A DNA stretch of 64,000 nt. It comes from an uncultured Eubacteriales bacterium (GTDB taxonomy: Bacteria; Bacillota; Clostridia; Oscillospirales; Acutalibacteraceae). The position numbers and the translations under genes were made by a program. Below the pieces are notes generated by a model that saw only the letters and a program-made list of their open reading frames with translations, was not told where the DNA came from and did no database searches. This document shows, piece after piece, positions 1 through 4,497 of this stretch; the first letter of the stretch is position 1, and each line of letters opens with the position of its first letter. The DNA lies in the NCBI GenBank assembly GCA_934486915.1, contig CAKSRC010000003.1, positions 2,208 to 66,207 of the forward strand, in the 5' to 3' direction.

Positions 1-241
1 AAAGAGCTTTATTACTGCTTATAATACCTCTTTTTAATGTAACATTGCCATATTTAGCAAGTCCAGGGAATTTTTCAGTAGTATATACGTTACTGTCACC
101 TGCTCTATATTCTATCGGATCATAGGAAACATCAAATCCTGATACTTCGCTAAATTGACCAAGAAGTGCGCTTTCAATACCTTCAATTTCACTAGATATC
201 TCAACTCTGAACTTAAAAGTTCTCATTACTAACTCTGCCAT
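1..241 (-). CDS. contractile tail tube protein (T4 gp19 / Afp1-Pvc1-like); C-terminus lies beyond window edge
   Basis: Not in the ORF track because it runs off the edge. Hand translation from ATG at 241-239 gives MAELVMRTFKFRVEISSEIEGIESALLGQFSEVSGFDVSYDPIEYRAGDSNVYTTEKFPGLAKYGNVTLKRGIISSNKAL. The FxFxVEI...FxEVSG...IEYRxG...PG..KYxNVxLKRG pattern is typical of gp19-type tubes. RBS AGAGGGGAG lies upstream, and the gene directly follows the sheath gene. Confidence 0.8.
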   Translation of the reverse strand, partial: MAELVMRTFKFRVEISSEIEGIESALLGQFSEVSGFDVSYDPIEYRAGDSNVYTTEKFPGLAKYGNVTLKRGIISSNKAL

Positions 242-267
242 TTAAACTAAACTCCCCTCTAAGTTAA

Positions 268-1998
268 TTATTCTCCTGTTTTTTGTGTAATTCTAAAGAT
301 TACAAACTCAGCCGGTTTAACTGGAGCAACACCGATTACGCAGATTAACTTACCGTTATCAATATCATCTTGAGTCATTGTGTTAGGTCCAATATCTACG
401 AAGAATGCTTCTGCTTCAGATGCGCCTGCAAGAGCACCGCTTCTCCACATACCTGATAGGAATGTTTCAACAGTTCTTCTTACTCTTACCCATAGCAATT
501 CATCGTTTGGCTCAAATACAACCCAGTTAGTATTTGCTTTGATAGATTCTTCTAAGTAGATAAACAAACGTCTAACGTTGATATATTTCCACATTGGATT
601 TGAAGAAGCTGTTCTAGCTCCCCAAACTCTTATGCCTGCACCAGGGAATCTTCTAATTAAGTTAACACCCTTTGGATTTAGAACATCTTGTTCGCCTACA
701 TTATAGTTGCAATATAGGCCTGTGCAGTTTGCAATTGTTTCATTAGCCGGAGCCTTATGTACTCCTCTTAATGCGTCAGTTCTTGCATATACGCCCATGA
801 TAGAACCTGAAGGTGGCATATAGATGCTCTTCTTGTCTAGTGGATCATATACTTCTAACCAAGGATGGTACATAGCGCAGTAGTCACTGTCTACGATATC
901 CCTATGAGCTATAAGTTCTTTTACAGTTTTGCTTTCCTTTGGCATATCTAAAACAGCAAATCTGCTTGCCAAAGATTCGCAGTGAGCAACTAGTGAAAGT
1001 TGTACATTTGCACTAACAATACCAGGTATTGCCATGATGTTAACTTCACTGTTGTCTAGGAATGCTTGAATTCCTGTACGGCTTCCAGGACCTTTGTCCT
1101 CGCCGATAAAGTCAGCGTCGCTAAGAGCTTCAACAGAACCATCTGTTCCGTTTTTAAGAGAAATAGTAACGACGTCTTTTTCGCAACCAAATACTTCTTG
1201 AATTACATTCAAAGGAGCGATTGGCAATGCGTTTGCTTTTACGCTAACATTTACTAATTCTGATTTAGCTAATTGTTTCTCTAAGAACTCAGCAGATTCA
1301 ATGTTTAGGGAAACATTTGAATATGCTTCTGTAATGTCACCGCATTTAACAGCTACATTCATTTCACAAGTTTTAATTGTGATAGTTGGAAGAAGAGCGT
1401 TATCAACTACATCATTAGAGAATGGTGCTTCAAAAGTGATAACCTTCTCATTAACTTCAGTAATAATATTGTATTCAGGAGAACCTGCACCCTCTAGAAC
1501 AACAACATCACCTGCGTTAAATCCATATTGAGATTTAACTCTGTATGAACCTGCTCCTAAATCTTCAAAAATTTGAGTTTTTGCTTTGCTTGCTTCAGAG
1601 AAAGTAACAGTTATTGCATTGCCCCATTTACCTGGGTTTTTAGCTTCAAAACTGATAATTCCTTCTTGACCTTCAGCGCAGCAGCTTGTAGCAACACTAG
1701 CATCAGAAGGAGCGACTCTCATGATGTAAGCACGAGTTCCTCCATTAATAAAGAAATGACTTACTGCATATGCTAGATAGCGGTACTGGCCAAACTCGCT
1801 TTCTTGAAGATATCCTCCAAATTTGCGATTAAACTCTGCTTGACTTAGTACTAATTCAGGTGCACCAATTGTTGCACCTTTTTCTGCTAGACCAATAAAG
1901 CCTGCAGTGCTTGTGCTAACACCTTGTACAGGTGCAGAACCATTGTCAAATTCCTCAACATAAACTCCTGGTGATAGATATTCAGCCATAATTCTCAC
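268..1998 (-). CDS. contractile tail sheath protein
   Basis: 576-aa ORF. N-terminus (M)AEYLSPGVYVEEFDNGSAPVQGVSTSTAGFIGLAEKG and C-terminal GVNLIRRFPGAGIRVWGARTAS...INVRRLFIYLEESI are hallmark sheath motifs. Start is GTG 1998 or ATG 1989. Confidence 0.9.
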   Translation of the reverse strand: MRIMAEYLSPGVYVEEFDNGSAPVQGVSTSTAGFIGLAEKGATIGAPELVLSQAEFNRKFGGYLQESEFGQYRYLAYAVSHFFINGGTRAYIMRVAPSDASVATSCCAEGQEGIISFEAKNPGKWGNAITVTFSEASKAKTQIFEDLGAGSYRVKSQYGFNAGDVVVLEGAGSPEYNIITEVNEKVITFEAPFSNDVVDNALLPTITIKTCEMNVAVKCGDITEAYSNVSLNIESAEFLEKQLAKSELVNVSVKANALPIAPLNVIQEVFGCEKDVVTISLKNGTDGSVEALSDADFIGEDKGPGSRTGIQAFLDNSEVNIMAIPGIVSANVQLSLVAHCESLASRFAVLDMPKESKTVKELIAHRDIVDSDYCAMYHPWLEVYDPLDKKSIYMPPSGSIMGVYARTDALRGVHKAPANETIANCTGLYCNYNVGEQDVLNPKGVNLIRRFPGAGIRVWGARTASSNPMWKYINVRRLFIYLEESIKANTNWVVFEPNDELLWVRVRRTVETFLSGMWRSGALAGASEAEAFFVDIGPNTMTQDDIDNGKLICVIGVAPVKPAEFVIFRITQKTGE

Positions 1999-2138
1999 GG
2001 TTTTTCCATATAAATGAAAAACCTTACAACTCCTTTCGCTTTCGATTTCTTTAATTAAAACCTTTAGTTAGTTGAATTTATTTAACATATAGATATTAAA
2101 AATATCTATGTGTAAACTAGTTAATAAAACTTAAGCAA

Positions 2139-3050
2139 TTACTCATCTTGATTATCGTTTGAACCCTCATCCTCATTTTCATCGGTTGTTTTTTCAGGTT
2201 CATTAATCTTTTTTCCCTTATCTTGATTTTCTTGCTCTTGTTTTTCTTGTTCTTTGAGCTCTTTTTCTATGTCTTCCAAACCCTTTACATTTTGAATATC
2301 TTCCTCTGCAAGCCTTTTCTTAAGCATATAAAGAAAAATTATATCGTCTCTTGCCCTAAACTTCATTTCTCTTGCTGTTTGCTTTGCTTCATTTACAGCC
2401 TTAAAGAACTTCTGCCTAAATACAAGGTTTTTTTGTTCTTTAAAGTTTTTGTCTTGATCCGGCAGTGGACTTTTCTTTTTACTTTTGCTCGTTTGATGGA
2501 AGTCTAAGACATCATCCATAGTTGTGAGATTCTGCTCATTATCCGAAAACTTGTCCATTTGCTGCTCAATATAGACAAAGTCATGAGATGCATTGGATCT
2601 AAGTACATTTGCACCACCCAAAAAGCTTTTGTCATTGGTCATAAACCTTTCAGATCCATTAGTAATTGACCTTTTTACTGTATCGCCTTCAATAAATTCC
2701 CTTGAATTTTGGGTTCTGGCGTGTTTTTCAGTAAACGTCAATACAATTTCATCTTTTTTTGAATCATACCCGATTTCAACCAATCCGGTATTGAGTTTAA
2801 TCTCACCTATTTTATTTGGCGGAGATTTTAAAGACTTTCCTGAAGTAGGTTTAACTTTTTTAAGCTTTTCACGCGGATTCATGTCATCCTTATCTCTAAA
2901 CCTTTCAATGTTGCTGCAAAAAGGGTCGCTTCGATATCTTTTTGAATCCCTTTGAGTCAAAGAGCTATAATCGATTGCATTACTAAAACTTTTACCTTTT
3001 TGGTTCAATGCCATTTTTTTATCTCTTTTTAAACTTTCATACAATGACAT
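2139..3050 (-). CDS. hypothetical highly charged protein (Lys/Glu/Asp-rich, acidic C-terminal tail), first gene of the tail-like operon
   Basis: 303-aa ORF with good RBS (GAGGTGGGA) before ATG 3050. No domain recognised. The C-terminus KELKEQEKQEQENQDKGKKINEPEKTTDENEDEGSNDNQDE looks disordered. Confidence 0.6.
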   Translation of the reverse strand: MSLYESLKRDKKMALNQKGKSFSNAIDYSSLTQRDSKRYRSDPFCSNIERFRDKDDMNPREKLKKVKPTSGKSLKSPPNKIGEIKLNTGLVEIGYDSKKDEIVLTFTEKHARTQNSREFIEGDTVKRSITNGSERFMTNDKSFLGGANVLRSNASHDFVYIEQQMDKFSDNEQNLTTMDDVLDFHQTSKSKKKSPLPDQDKNFKEQKNLVFRQKFFKAVNEAKQTAREMKFRARDDIIFLYMLKKRLAEEDIQNVKGLEDIEKELKEQEKQEQENQDKGKKINEPEKTTDENEDEGSNDNQDE

Positions 3051-3516
3051 TTTCCCACCTCATTCATCAAATGAAACCGTTTTATGTAATGTTATCTTAT
3101 GAGTTAATAATATCATCATAAAATTTACTTGTCAATACTTTTTTAGAGAAAAAAATGTAATTTTTTTGCTTTTACGACCTGTTTATTAATAAAACCTGCT
3201 TATGTCATACGCATTAGTTTACTTTTATATATGAAATATAAACTTTTATTAGGAAATCAATAAAATATATTACATAGCTTTCAACTCGTCTTTTTATGAA
3301 TTTTCCTACCCTTAACCTTACAATATTTAAGTATAAATCTAAGTTTTTAATTAATTTATAAGACCTAATTAATGAGATGATAATACCAAATGGGCTATTC
3401 TACATATTTCTCACTTGATTCATGTTAAGATATCCATATATCCTTATAAATGTCAAGCATTAGGCCCTATTTCAATATAAAGTTATTATTACAATATTAC
3501 CCAAACAATAAAAAGC

Positions 3517-3545
3517 TTGTAATATTTGATAAATATTACTATAAT
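3517..3545 (+). promoter_or_regulatory. sigma-A-type promoter for prmA
   Basis: TTGTAA (3517-3522), 17-nt spacer, TATAAT (3540-3545). Confidence 0.6.
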
Positions 3546-3579
3546 AAATGGTATTATAATAATAAAAGGAGGAGTTCCT

Positions 3580-4497
3580 ATTAACTTTAACGAAATAATA
3601 ATCACAGTCCCATCAGCTCAAACTGATATTGCAGGTGCAATCGCTAATATGGTTGTTCCATATGGAATATATATTGAAGACTACTCTAATCTTGAAAAAG
3701 AAGTAATGGAGATTGCAAATATAGATATGATAGACGAATCTCTTATTAAGAAAGATAGATCAAAAAGTAAGATCCATATCTATATTGATAAAGAGCACAG
3801 CCCTATTGAGGCCATTTCTTTTTTAAAAGAAAGATATAAAAGTGAGTCAATAGACTTTGACATATCAGTTCAAGATATGCATGAAGAAGACTTCGCAAAC
3901 AATTGGAAAAAGTATTTTAAACCTATAGAAGTAGGCAATAAACTTCTAATAAGGCCTATATGGGAAGAATACAAGGAAAAAACCTCAAGAAAAATATTAA
4001 ATCTTGAGCCGGGTATCGCATTTGGAACGGGAACCCATCAAACTACCAGACTATGTCTTTCAATGCTTGAAGATGTAGTAAACAATGAAAGCCGTGTATT
4101 AGACGTTGGGTGCGGCAGCGGTATACTTGCTATTGCATCTTTAGTTTTGGGTGCCAAAAGTGCCCTAGGCGTAGATATTGATGAGCTTGCTGTAAAAACC
4201 GCAGTAAATAATGCAAAGCTTAACAACGTGGAAAACCGCTTTAATGCAGTTTGCGGAGACCTTTTAGATAAAGTCGATGGCCAATACGATATCATTCTTG
4301 CCAATATAGTCGCCGATGTCATAATCAACCTTTCTAAGGATATAAAGCCCTATATGCATAAAGATACTATATTCTTAATGAGCGGAATAATTGATTCAAG
4401 ACTTTTAGATGTTAAAAATGCTCTAAATGAAAGCTTTATAATATTAGACGAAAGGCAAGATAAGTGTTGGGTGGCACTAAAAGCCAAACTAAAATAA
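3580..4497 (+). CDS. prmA: ribosomal protein L11 methyltransferase
   Basis: PrmA N-domain (NFNEIIITVPSAQTDIAGAI...GIYIED), SAM motif VLDVGCGSGILAI and GTGTHQTT. The ORF-track start 3526 lies inside the predicted promoter. An ATT at 3580 follows RBS AAAGGAGGAG. Confidence 0.85.
   Translation: MNFNEIIITVPSAQTDIAGAIANMVVPYGIYIEDYSNLEKEVMEIANIDMIDESLIKKDRSKSKIHIYIDKEHSPIEAISFLKERYKSESIDFDISVQDMHEEDFANNWKKYFKPIEVGNKLLIRPIWEEYKEKTSRKILNLEPGIAFGTGTHQTTRLCLSMLEDVVNNESRVLDVGCGSGILAIASLVLGAKSALGVDIDELAVKTAVNNAKLNNVENRFNAVCGDLLDKVDGQYDIILANIVADVIINLSKDIKPYMHKDTIFLMSGIIDSRLLDVKNALNESFIILDERQDKCWVALKAKLK

Follow-up and report, generated by a model that had tools for sequence, protein, structure and literature searches.

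Which kind of phage-tail-like machine is encoded at the left edge of the window, by which we mean the whole 64,000-nt stretch of DNA analysed here? The window starts at position 2208 of contig C3, with 2.2 kb separating it from the contig end, in a 98%-complete metagenome-assembled genome (MAG) of a gut member of the Clostridia with a small genome (1.48 Mb). A sequence-only reading had taken the genes at this edge for the start of a headless contractile tail-like locus that directly adjoins core genes and continues leftwards, and had left the choice between a tailocin and an extracellular contractile injection system (eCIS). Our analysis indicates that the cluster, which is located between prmA and metK, very probably encodes, on the chromosome, an entire contractile injection system (CIS) of the Afp/PVC superfamily, of which the window holds the promoter-proximal end, and that it is neither a prophage nor an R-type tailocin. 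The core identification is an ordinary one, adding a further member to a catalogued superfamily.

The promoter-proximal end of the operon

The minus strand of the window carries a leader gene, a contractile sheath gene, and the start of an inner-tube gene. Only the first 80 codons of the tube gene fall within the window (1–241, minus strand; ORF 2–241, open at the window edge; PF06841, E = 4.2e-15). The full-length tube protein (163 aa; C3 1957–2448) matches PF06841 (T4 gp19) at E = 6.2e-35 and TIGR02241 at E = 3.8e-29, above the cut-off, and in the PDB it matches CIS tubes best: 9R9H, AlgoCIS 7ADZ, tCIS 7B5H, Pvc1, and Afp1.

The genome has a single sheath gene, of the Cis2/Afp2-4 type (268–1998, minus strand). 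It is open for 576 aa from a GTG at 1998; the ATG at 1989 (MAEYLSPGVYVEE...), giving 573 aa, is the more likely start, because the gene call in a 94%-identical relative is 573 aa. The protein matches PF04984 (E = 1.8e-19), PF17482 (E = 1.2e-18), and the PHROG family phrog_23, "tail sheath" (E = 3e-73). A comparison with PDB chains ranks haloarchaeal Cis2 first (9EZM, E = 5.7e-123) and Streptomyces Cis2 second (E = 3.6e-99), followed by weaker matches to the PVC, Afp, tCIS, and AlgoCIS sheaths (E = 1e-45 to 1e-52), pyocin R2 (E = 1.4e-14), and T4 (E = 1e-8).

Between the leader and sheath genes (1999–2138, minus strand) are an AAAGGAG Shine-Dalgarno sequence, an AT-rich palindrome, and, immediately ahead of the GTG, a hairpin (ggtttttc/gaaaaacc); the minus strand of this interval showed no terminator-like site. 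The leader gene (2139–3050, minus strand) encodes a 303-aa protein rich in K, E, and D, with a small beta domain (approximately residues 79–153), an 85-residue helix (198–282), and an acidic tail. Even with relaxed thresholds, it has no match among the Pfam and PHROG families, and a search of 5.8 billion proteins returned only 5 clusters. Its AlphaFold model is of moderate confidence (mean pLDDT 69.8), and a Foldseek search of the model against the PDB gave no fold match at E <= 0.001. Leader homologues are encoded immediately upstream of the sheath gene in 39/67 related loci, and the leader is a protein specific to this CIS clade.

A ribosome-binding site (GAGGTGGG) sits 5 nt ahead of the leader ATG. 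Further upstream is a candidate sigma-A promoter (3107–3135, minus strand; TTGACA-17-TATTAT with a TG extension), identified by pattern match only, with 11/12 consensus positions matching; promoter-like sites in this region are no commoner than in shuffled sequence. The candidate promoter lies in a 475-nt AT-rich spacer (3051–3525; GC 0.24–0.29 in the covering 500-nt windows) that separates the operon from the divergent gene prmA (3526–4497, plus strand; PF06325, E = 1.8e-80), and in the ORF list the right-hand neighbours of the operon are prmA and two ABC exporters. The ORFs and the PF04984, PF17482, and PF06841 matches thus confirm the minus-strand order given in the sequence-only reading (303-aa charged ORF, sheath, gp19-type tube), and the AT-rich spacer followed by prmA is likewise as it described; the span that it assigned to these genes, 1–1998, omits the 303-aa ORF of its own description.

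The remainder of the cluster

The anticipated leftward continuation exists, although contig C3 itself adds just 2.2 kb of it. Using the proteins of a relative as tblastn queries, we mapped the missing parts to two further contigs of the same MAG, C89 and C9, so that a CIS cluster of ~30 kb and ~23 genes is split over three contigs (C3 -> C89 -> C9). The contig order was taken from relatives, because no exact overlaps were found between the contig ends. In particular, a contiguous relative (G001) has the identical 23-gene order without head genes; a 94%-identical scaffold (L095) runs from prmA, leader, and sheath through to tape measure, CIS_tube, GPD, spike, gp25, and J; and the prmA-leader-sheath junction is matched in relatives L095–L097.

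The first part of the cluster, from C3 onward, comprises the leader, sheath, tube, a small conserved protein, a second tube, and the tape measure. The small conserved ORF is chaperone-like, the second tube (184 aa) matches PF06841 (E = 1.7e-10), and the tube proteins give matches to the CIS1 and CIS5 equivalog models that fall below the cut-offs. The protein at the tape-measure position carries 270-bp tandem repeats, within which the first assembly gap falls.

The middle part comprises a CIS_tube initiator, a GPD hub, the spike, gp25, two Baseplate_J proteins, Tail_P2_I, and a Big_2 protein at the fibre position. The CIS_tube protein (Afp7-like; C89) matches PF19266 (E = 4.2e-19), and the N-terminus of the hub, whose gene is cut by the contig end of C89, matches GPD at E = 1.3e-05, below the Pfam cut-off. 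The second assembly gap spans the hub C-terminus and the spike; the spike gene (Phage_base_V), which the sequence-only reading had also expected, is present in L095 and G001 and absent from the MAG's own assembly. On C9 are gp25 (PF04965, E = 2.4e-15) and the two Baseplate_J proteins (PF04865, E = 1.8e-09 and 2.8e-06), which match TIGR02243 at E = 7e-45 and 1.2e-43 with scores of 153.7 and 149.7 bits, just under the 155.8 cut-off. The best match of the Cis11-like protein is the Streptomyces CIS baseplate (9GTP, E = 2.3e-24). The Tail_P2_I and Big_2 proteins are also encoded on C9, and the 601-aa fibre-position protein is 63% identical to its G001 counterpart, versus 47–55% for the baseplate proteins.

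The end of the cluster comprises four membrane proteins, a Pvc16/DUF4255 cap (C9:15767-16342; PF14065, Pvc16_N, E = 2.8e-23), a DUF4280 (PAAR-like) protein (E = 2.1e-39), and a 662-aa Afp15-like AAA+ ATPase with an N-terminal winged-helix domain (PF00004, E = 1.4e-35). Searches of the PDB with the cap and with the fibre-position protein gave no useful match. Orthologues of the ATPase were found in 8/8 related genomes tested, 6 within ~30 kb of the sheath gene and 2 ~100 kb away. The far boundary on C9 is formed by metK, pheT, pheS, and ruvC, and core genes therefore adjoin the cluster on both sides. Nearly all the components that the sequence-only reading suggested looking for have in this way been located: tape measure, gp25, J-type baseplate, hub, PAAR-like DUF4280, DUF4255 cap, AAA+ ATPase, and fibre-position protein.

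The proposal that the locus is headless also held. Pfam scans of all ORFs of C3, C89, and C9 and of a related locus (L005) revealed no capsid, portal, terminase, or integrase gene, with two short assembly gaps left uncovered in the genome itself; in contiguous relatives, no head, integrase, or lysogeny genes were found over ~30 kb.

Alternative identities of the locus

Three alternatives were weighed. The first is that the cluster is a decaying relic, non-functional in its small genome, as might be suggested by the unassembled spike and partial hub and by a patchy distribution in the family (3/22 other genera). We consider decay very unlikely: none of the visible ORFs is disrupted, each can be aligned with its counterpart in relatives over almost its whole length, and the breaks fall at contig ends, one inside the 270-bp tandem repeat and the other in a strain-variable segment (73.6% nucleotide identity, versus 91–94%). 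Moreover, the cluster is kept in 3/3 species of the genus and in the 1.0–1.1 Mb genomes of Candidatus Improbicoccus (protist endosymbionts), the genome paper of which makes no mention of sheath, phage, or injection.

The second alternative, an R-type tailocin of the pyocin or diffocin kind, would be a released bactericidal tail without cargo or ATPase, freed by a lysis cassette. Its structure would likewise be a headless contractile tail, and the host is a Firmicute; Clostridioides difficile, for example, produces diffocins. This identity is highly improbable given that the sheath matches that of pyocin at E = 1.4e-14 versus 5.7e-123 for a CIS sheath, that the tube is of the gp19/TIGR02241 CIS type, and that the cluster includes Pvc16_N, DUF4280, and the Afp15-like ATPase. 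In addition, the cluster ORFs yielded neither a holin nor an endolysin, the nearest lysozyme (GH25-LysM) lying past metK and pheST on the opposite strand. Between the two options left by the sequence-only reading, the eCIS type is accordingly supported by the CIS sheath, Pvc16 cap, and ATPase, and the R-type tailocin is rejected.

The third alternative is that the cluster is the tail module of a myovirus prophage, ordinary or rearranged, whose head genes lie elsewhere. It can draw on the phage-derived nature of the sheath, tube, tape-measure, and baseplate genes and on one marginal HK97-capsid-like match in a genome-wide capsid family search (C2:63660-64205, 25.9 bits). It is nonetheless largely refuted and scarcely credible, since the locus is bounded by prmA and metK/pheST, contiguous relatives are headless, a PF04860-type portal is absent from the genome, the capsid-like match sits in the interior of an unrelated 82-kb contig, the Pvc16 cap and AAA+ ATPase are hallmarks of CISs, and no sheath in 50,697 phage records exceeds 33% identity.

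Proposed assembly of the particle

With the locus taken as a CIS, we infer the core mechanism of its parts from homology to solved CISs. The baseplate would consist of GPD and a gp5-type spike tipped by DUF4280, together with gp25, the two Cis11-like J proteins, and the P2-gpI-like protein. The tube would be started by CIS_tube and the second gp19-like protein, and its length would be set by the repeat-containing tape measure. The 163-aa tube protein and the 573-aa sheath protein would polymerise on the baseplate, and the Pvc16/DUF4255 protein would cap the particle, while the Afp15-like AAA+ ATPase may aid assembly or cargo loading. Sheath contraction would then push the tube, with its spike, across a membrane. 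Genes recognisable as toxin cargo were not found at the locus.

Membrane proteins and mode of firing

Three of the four membrane proteins form a co-occurring trio: a receptor made up of extracellular, HAMP, pseudo-cyclase, and TPR regions, a TM-LysM protein, and a bitopic MORN protein; the fourth is a Cu_amine_oxidN1 protein. The HAMP receptor has four hydrophobic segments, and the LysM, MORN, and Cu_amine_oxidN1 proteins have one each. Among 41 relatives, the receptor is encoded in 5/6 sheath-positive and 0/35 sheath-negative genomes (Fisher p = 8e-6), the single sheath-positive genome without it being a 70%-complete MAG, and it was found in 34/34 further sheath-positive genomes. Full-length MORN and LysM orthologues follow the same pattern, and one genome (G030) retains the trio even though it is unlinked, 350–690 kb from the sheath gene. 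This co-occurrence is evidence of functional coupling, not of mechanism, and the trio could act as regulators instead of anchors.

At its C-terminus, the receptor has a class III cyclase homology domain (profile match to 2W01, E = 3.4e-18). The family consensus has substitutions at both metal-binding Asp positions as well as at the catalytic Asn and Arg, and the domain is predicted to be catalytically dead. The N-terminus of the LysM protein gives only weak matches to a kinase N-lobe (E ~0.006), and we tentatively describe it as a pseudokinase or kinase-like domain. At least one member of the trio, and possibly two, has a predicted catalytically dead signalling domain.

The "extracellular" in the eCIS label is tentative; the nearest characterised relatives work from inside the cell (PMC11566945, PMC10066040). 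We favour, at a little less than even odds, a particle that stays with its producer and is docked or triggered at the cytoplasmic membrane, where the trio would do the docking. A machine tethered in this manner would resemble the T6SS-like CIS of haloarchaea or the Streptomyces CIS-Sc with CisA.

Release of free particles, as from a classical eCIS, is almost as probable. The presence of a tape measure and of an Ig-domain protein at the fibre position counts against tethering, and eBAP3-type fibres with BIG_2 domains have been reported in Bacillota eCIS (preprint 10.1101/2025.05.13.653841). Firing across a thick Gram-positive wall is also hard to envisage, which counts against tethering as well (PMC10066040, discussion). 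The broader proposal that Bacillota, gut ones included, have a membrane-tethered, signal-gated CIS as a Gram-positive counterpart of the T6SS is tentative, and we regard it as somewhat doubtful. Under this proposal, the receptor, LysM, and MORN proteins would hold the baseplate at the cytoplasmic membrane and link firing to cell-wall or envelope signals; the target would be neighbouring cells or a eukaryotic host, or else firing would bring about a controlled death of the producer. No papers joining "contractile injection" with "MORN repeat" were found in the literature searched, and the strict co-occurrence of trio and sheath yields a testable idea for how a phage-tail machine might be anchored or triggered in a thick-walled cell.

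Distribution and significance

Relatives of the sheath are encoded in more than 579 bacterial genome stretches, of which 80, 57–97% identical, were kept; those in Paenibacillus and Cohnella genomes are ~58–60% identical. The sheath family is common in MAGs of gut Clostridia, contrasting with a large isolate-based survey in which eCIS were depleted in human gut isolates except Bacteroides (PMC8213781). CISs have been studied in detail only in Gram-negative bacteria, Streptomyces, or haloarchaea, and none from Firmicutes had been observed as a particle in the literature searched. Cultured carriers include Ruminococcaceae bacterium AM07-15, Angelakisella massiliensis Marseille-P3217, Heliorestis acidaminivorans DSM 24790, and species of Paenibacillus and Cohnella.

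Comparison with known systems

By sequence similarity, the nearest solved sheaths are those of the membrane-bound haloarchaeal CIS and then the cytoplasmic Streptomyces CIS. The closest, that of Halogeometricum borinquense (dbeCIS clade IIa), is 574 aa long and has an MxEYxSPGVYVEE N-terminus in common with the present sheath. The H. borinquense cluster includes a Cis15 ATPase, a Cis16 cap, and baseplate genes of the Cis11 type in two copies (PMC11566945), all with equivalents here, and an associated conserved membrane protein (PMC11566945), as there are membrane proteins here. Unlike the present host, H. borinquense is an archaeon with an S-layer, and its cluster is without a tape measure and plug (PMC11566945), whereas a tape measure is present here. 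The putative anchors also differ, by description rather than by sequence: a six-helix protein, Hbor_38620, in H. borinquense, and the HAMP/pseudo-cyclase receptor, LysM, and MORN proteins here, no protein with six hydrophobic segments being found in the cluster.

The CIS of Streptomyces coelicolor, CIS-Sc (clade IId; 8BKY, 8BL4, 9GTP), has the second-closest sheath, the closest Cis11, and a Gram-positive host like that of the present locus. In CIS-Sc, a bitopic membrane protein is encoded just past the baseplate genes, a likeness of position alone to the MORN and Cu_amine_oxidN1 proteins here; that protein, CisA, is the CIS-Sc membrane adaptor (PMC10066040; bioRxiv 10.1101/2024.06.25.600559). 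CIS-Sc is described as lacking a typical tape measure and fibre, whereas the present locus has both by position, and HAMP, cyclase-like, and MORN proteins are undescribed for CIS-Sc, the function of which is linked to hyphal cell death and development.

The Afp of Serratia entomophila and the PVC of Photorhabdus match the present locus in components: tube, sheath, Afp5-like, Afp7-like, candidate VgrG-like, gp25, and Afp11-like proteins, tape measure, AAA+ ATPase (Afp15), and DUF4255 cap (Afp16), without head genes. Their sheaths are far less similar (E = 1e-46 to 1e-49) and are encoded by three genes rather than one long gene. The genes are also arranged differently, the cap and ATPase coming last here; the adenovirus-like Afp13 fibre is missing here; and the present host is a monoderm, unlike the Afp and PVC hosts. 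R-type pyocin and the tails of T4 and other myophages have the contractile sheath and tube, gp25, and J-type baseplate in common with the locus, but neither the Pvc16 cap nor the AAA+ ATPase.

From the same phylum, Firmicutes eCIS loci of Ruminiclostridium cellulolyticum H10 and Paenibacillus jilunlii (PMC8213781) were compared by description only; Geller et al. 2021 (PMC8213781) catalogued Firmicutes loci and tested single toxins in E. coli. We place the present cluster in a Gram-positive/archaeal "clade II"-like branch, and the locus belongs to a known family whose Gram-positive branch has received little study.

Sheath and leader genes at the window edge

The first 3 kb of the window contains three minus-strand ORFs: a 303-aa, K/E/D-rich ORF (leader; 2139–3050), a 576-aa tail sheath (268–1998; PF04984, 1.8e-19; PF17482, 1.2e-18; phrog_23, 3e-73), and the fragment of an inner tube that is open at the window edge (2–241; T4 gp19 PF06841, 4.2e-15). 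Family matches thus confirm the sheath and gp19-like tube that the sequence-only reading had placed behind a charged 303-aa ORF; searches of Pfam and PHROG yielded no family for the leader. The 475-nt spacer that had been described as AT-rich (3051–3525) indeed has a GC fraction of 0.24–0.29 in the 500-nt windows covering it, and is followed, as proposed, by prmA (PF06325, 1.8e-80) and then by two ABC exporters.

A strong candidate sigma-A-like promoter (minus strand, 3135–3107; TTGACA-17-TATTAT with a TG extension) is located upstream of the leader, an RBS also precedes the leader ORF, and a search of the leader–sheath interval for terminator-like sites found none between the two ORFs. The sheath probably starts at the ATG at 1989, giving MAEYLSPGVYVEE..., the N-terminus found in the solved homologue and in the 573-aa gene call from a close relative. 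On the same strand, a perfect 8-bp hairpin (1999–2036; ggtttttc...gaaaaacc) sits between an AAAGGAG Shine-Dalgarno sequence and the sheath GTG/ATG, and an AT-rich palindrome (2085–2110; catagatatttttaatatctatatg) lies farther upstream of the sheath; the two elements may regulate sheath expression, either translationally or as an operator.

In 39 of 67 related loci, the gene immediately preceding the sheath encodes a leader homologue; these are essentially the loci with a sheath identity above ~62%, Improbicoccus among them. The leader evolves fast, with homologues aligning at 12–30% identity to the protein studied here. Its predicted structure comprises a small beta domain, an 85-residue helix, and an acidic tail, and a fold search with this model returned no match; the leader could serve as cargo, scaffold, or regulator.

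Reconstruction of the locus from three contigs

The genome under study (1.48 Mb in 106 contigs, 98% complete) contains one sheath gene. The locus had been expected to continue left of the window, and its remainder was located at the end of the window's own contig (C3) and on two further contigs (C89 and C9). The window spans C3:2208–66207, and the 2.2 kb of the contig to its left (L001) codes for four proteins: the full 163-aa tube (PF06841, 6.2e-35), a small 125-aa protein between the tube genes (L001 1449–1826; weak tail-chaperone match, phrog_508), a second gp19-like protein of 184 aa, and the N-terminus of an Asn-rich protein whose gene is cut by the contig end. The 125-aa protein is among the best conserved of the cluster, with 58–68% identity across Clostridia, while the tube itself has 36–49%.

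Queries for the missing parts were the proteins of L005, which is the closest contiguous relative (sheath identity 73%) and whose operon continues with a 757-aa protein at the tape-measure position, two CIS_tube proteins, a GPD hub, a Phage_base_V spike, gp25, and a large baseplate protein. With tblastn, the missing parts fall on C89 (2.3 kb; tape-measure C-terminus, CIS_tube protein, and GPD N-terminus) and on the start of C9 (gp25 and the large baseplate protein). A search for overlaps between the ends of C3, C89, and C9 found none, and the order C3–C89–C9 is settled by contiguous relatives. In one relative (G001), a single contig carries the same 23 genes in identical order, flanked upstream by the core genes BipA, MscL, and an ABC transporter, with no head genes at the locus. 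Another, L095, is a 142-kb scaffold sharing with C3 94% identity as well as the flank (spoIID, gap, rpmF, ABC, prmA); its gene order is leader, sheath, tube, small ORF, second tube, tape measure, CIS_tube, GPD, spike, gp25, and J.

The first gap falls in the tape-measure gene, which contains a 270-bp (90-aa) tandem repeat (4.5 copies at 92% identity in L095, 15492–16701); the C3 end (C3:1–76) and the C89 start (C89:1–85) are both inside this repeat. At least four MAGs of the genus have an assembly break there, and the repeat accounts for the breakage of several (L002, G009, G010) at one site. Tail length could be set by the number of repeats, which may differ between strains. The second gap, of ~1.3 kb, removes the hub C-terminus and the spike from the assembly. 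The adjoining CIS_tube/hub segment (C89:1016–2284) is 73.6% identical to L095 17686–18976, against 91–94% elsewhere. The gap probably reflects strain variation, and recombination or diversification may be concentrated in this segment, at the spike end.

Pfam scans of C9 identify, in order, gp25 (132 aa), two Baseplate_J proteins (1003 and 713 aa), Tail_P2_I (391 aa), a 601-aa protein at the fibre position with a C-terminal Big_2 domain, a membrane protein with LysM (384 aa, opposite strand), membrane proteins with HAMP (944 aa), MORN repeats (500 aa), and Cu_amine_oxidN1 (420 aa), Pvc16_N/DUF4255 (191 aa; 2.8e-23), a CarboxypepD_reg-like protein (248 aa), DUF4280 (129 aa; 2.1e-39), an AAA+ ATPase with a winged-helix domain (662 aa), a 178-aa protein with no Pfam family, and a 313-aa esterase (BD-FAE / Abhydrolase_3) for which the relatives' loci showed no counterpart. 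Beyond the cluster lie metK, pheT, pheS, a GH25-LysM lysozyme, and ruvC. The lysozyme (C9:26878–27831, minus strand; two LysM domains), ~7 kb past the cluster and after metK and pheST, could be an ordinary autolysin or be used for release.

Affiliation with the Afp/PVC superfamily

The component set, together with the lack of head genes, identifies the cluster by its gene content as an Afp/PVC-superfamily contractile injection system (CIS). The set comprises a gp19/TIGR02241 tube, a second tube, and a CIS_tube initiator on the tube side; the hub, gp25, and two TIGR02243-like proteins on the baseplate side; and a DUF4255 cap, a PAAR-like DUF4280 protein, and an AAA+ ATPase. The tape measure, baseplate, PAAR, and ATPase that the sequence-only reading had proposed to look for are thus present, and the assembled parts of the locus contain no capsid genes. 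On an unrelated 82-kb contig, one mid-contig segment (C2:63660–64205) scores 25.9 bits against an HK97-type capsid family, barely above the cut-off; this borderline hit may stem from a prophage remnant, from an encapsulin, or from chance.

Subclade placement was by PDB E-values. Among solved sheaths, the best match is Halogeometricum borinquense Cis2 (9EZM, 5.7e-123), followed by Streptomyces Cis2 (8BKY and 8BL4, 3.6e-99 and 3.5e-96), PVC, Afp, tCIS, and AlgoCIS (1e-45 to 1e-52), pyocin R2 (1.4e-14), and T4 gp18 (~1e-8). The 1003-aa baseplate protein likewise matches best a Streptomyces CIS baseplate (9GTP, 2.3e-24), and the nearest of the sheaths in 50,697 phage records reaches 33% identity.

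Of the two particle types suggested earlier, the CIS stands; an R-type tailocin is rejected on the pyocin R2 score (1.4e-14 versus 5.7e-123 for 9EZM) and the CIS component set. A prophage is rejected on the CIS sheath ranking, phage sheaths at most 33% identical, and no head genes at the locus. The term "extracellular" cannot be assumed, since the haloarchaeal CIS that is the source of 9EZM (dbeCIS clade IIa) attaches to the cytoplasmic membrane and mediates contact-dependent killing (PMC11566945), and the Streptomyces CIS is cytoplasmic and unreleased, its firing requiring the membrane protein CisA (PMC10066040; bioRxiv 10.1101/2024.06.25.600559).

A co-occurring membrane module

A hydropathy scan indicates four hydrophobic segments in the HAMP protein and one each in the LysM, MORN, and Cu_amine_oxidN1 proteins. 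Orthologues of the LysM, HAMP, and MORN proteins occupy the same position in G001, isolate AM07-15, and Heliorestis. Among the 41 nearest relatives, the HAMP receptor is present in 5 of 6 sheath-positive and 0 of 35 sheath-negative genomes (Fisher p = 8e-6), the single exception being a 70%-complete MAG, and it is present, mostly full-length, in 34/34 further sheath-positive genomes. Full-length MORN and LysM orthologues follow the same pattern.

Some small genomes, including 1.0–1.1 Mb protist endosymbionts, scatter CIS genes over hundreds of kb yet retain them all. On one 1.28-Mb contig (G030), the sheath, LysM gene, and HAMP–MORN pair are retained at 45 kb, 399 kb, and 737–741 kb, respectively; in two Candidatus Improbicoccus genomes (G005, G063), sheath and receptor are ~200 kb apart, with the ATPase at a third site in one. 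The Candidatus Improbicoccus genome paper leaves CIS genes unmentioned.

Profile comparison matches the C-terminal 350 residues of the HAMP receptor to a class III adenylate cyclase (2W01, 3.4e-18), and a TPR-like tail comes after this domain. The domain is a probable pseudo-cyclase, because the family consensus carries other residues in place of the two metal-binding Asp, the catalytic Asn, and the Arg. The LysM protein N-terminal domain is tentatively labelled a pseudokinase, its matches to the kinase N-lobe being weak. A second MORN-repeat protein (C24:17460–17975; 849-aa open frame) is encoded outside the cluster and has counterparts in both sister species.

Proposed assembly and mode of action

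Gene content, order, boundaries, affiliation, and co-occurrence of the membrane trio are observed; the steps of the mechanism are inferred from solved homologues. The baseplate would assemble around the hub and spike, the initiators would start the tube, and the tape measure would set its length; tube and sheath would then polymerise and be capped by the Pvc16 protein, with the ATPase aiding assembly or loading. Contraction would push tube and spike through a membrane.

That the system acts while associated with its own cell has, in our judgement, a little under an even chance. Both nearest characterised relatives work from within the cell, and large cytoplasmic domains are present in the co-occurring membrane proteins (the cyclase-like one without catalytic residues). 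Conservation is also higher in the fibre-position protein than in the baseplate proteins (63% versus 47–55% identity to G001), and the cluster contains no lysis genes. Release as an eCIS is a serious possibility that we hold somewhat more tentatively. It is favoured by the tape measure and the Ig-domain protein at the fibre position, by the eBAP3/BIG_2-type fibres reported in Bacillota (10.1101/2025.05.13.653841), and by the thick wall, which would be hard to fire through.

Distribution and comparison with known systems

Searching the genome collection gave more than 579 sites with a sheath relative, the majority in Clostridia MAGs; the 80 retained are 57–97% identical. Clostridia MAGs from the guts of humans and animals (Hadza, chicken, goat, termite) commonly carry this sheath family. 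A survey built on isolates had reported depletion of eCIS in the human gut outside Bacteroides (PMC8213781), a discrepancy that looks like cultivation bias. Our literature search found no description of a Firmicute CIS particle or of the membrane trio. Firmicutes eCIS loci have already been catalogued in Paenibacillus jilunlii and Ruminiclostridium cellulolyticum (PMC8213781), and the core of the cluster is therefore a further member of a known superfamily.
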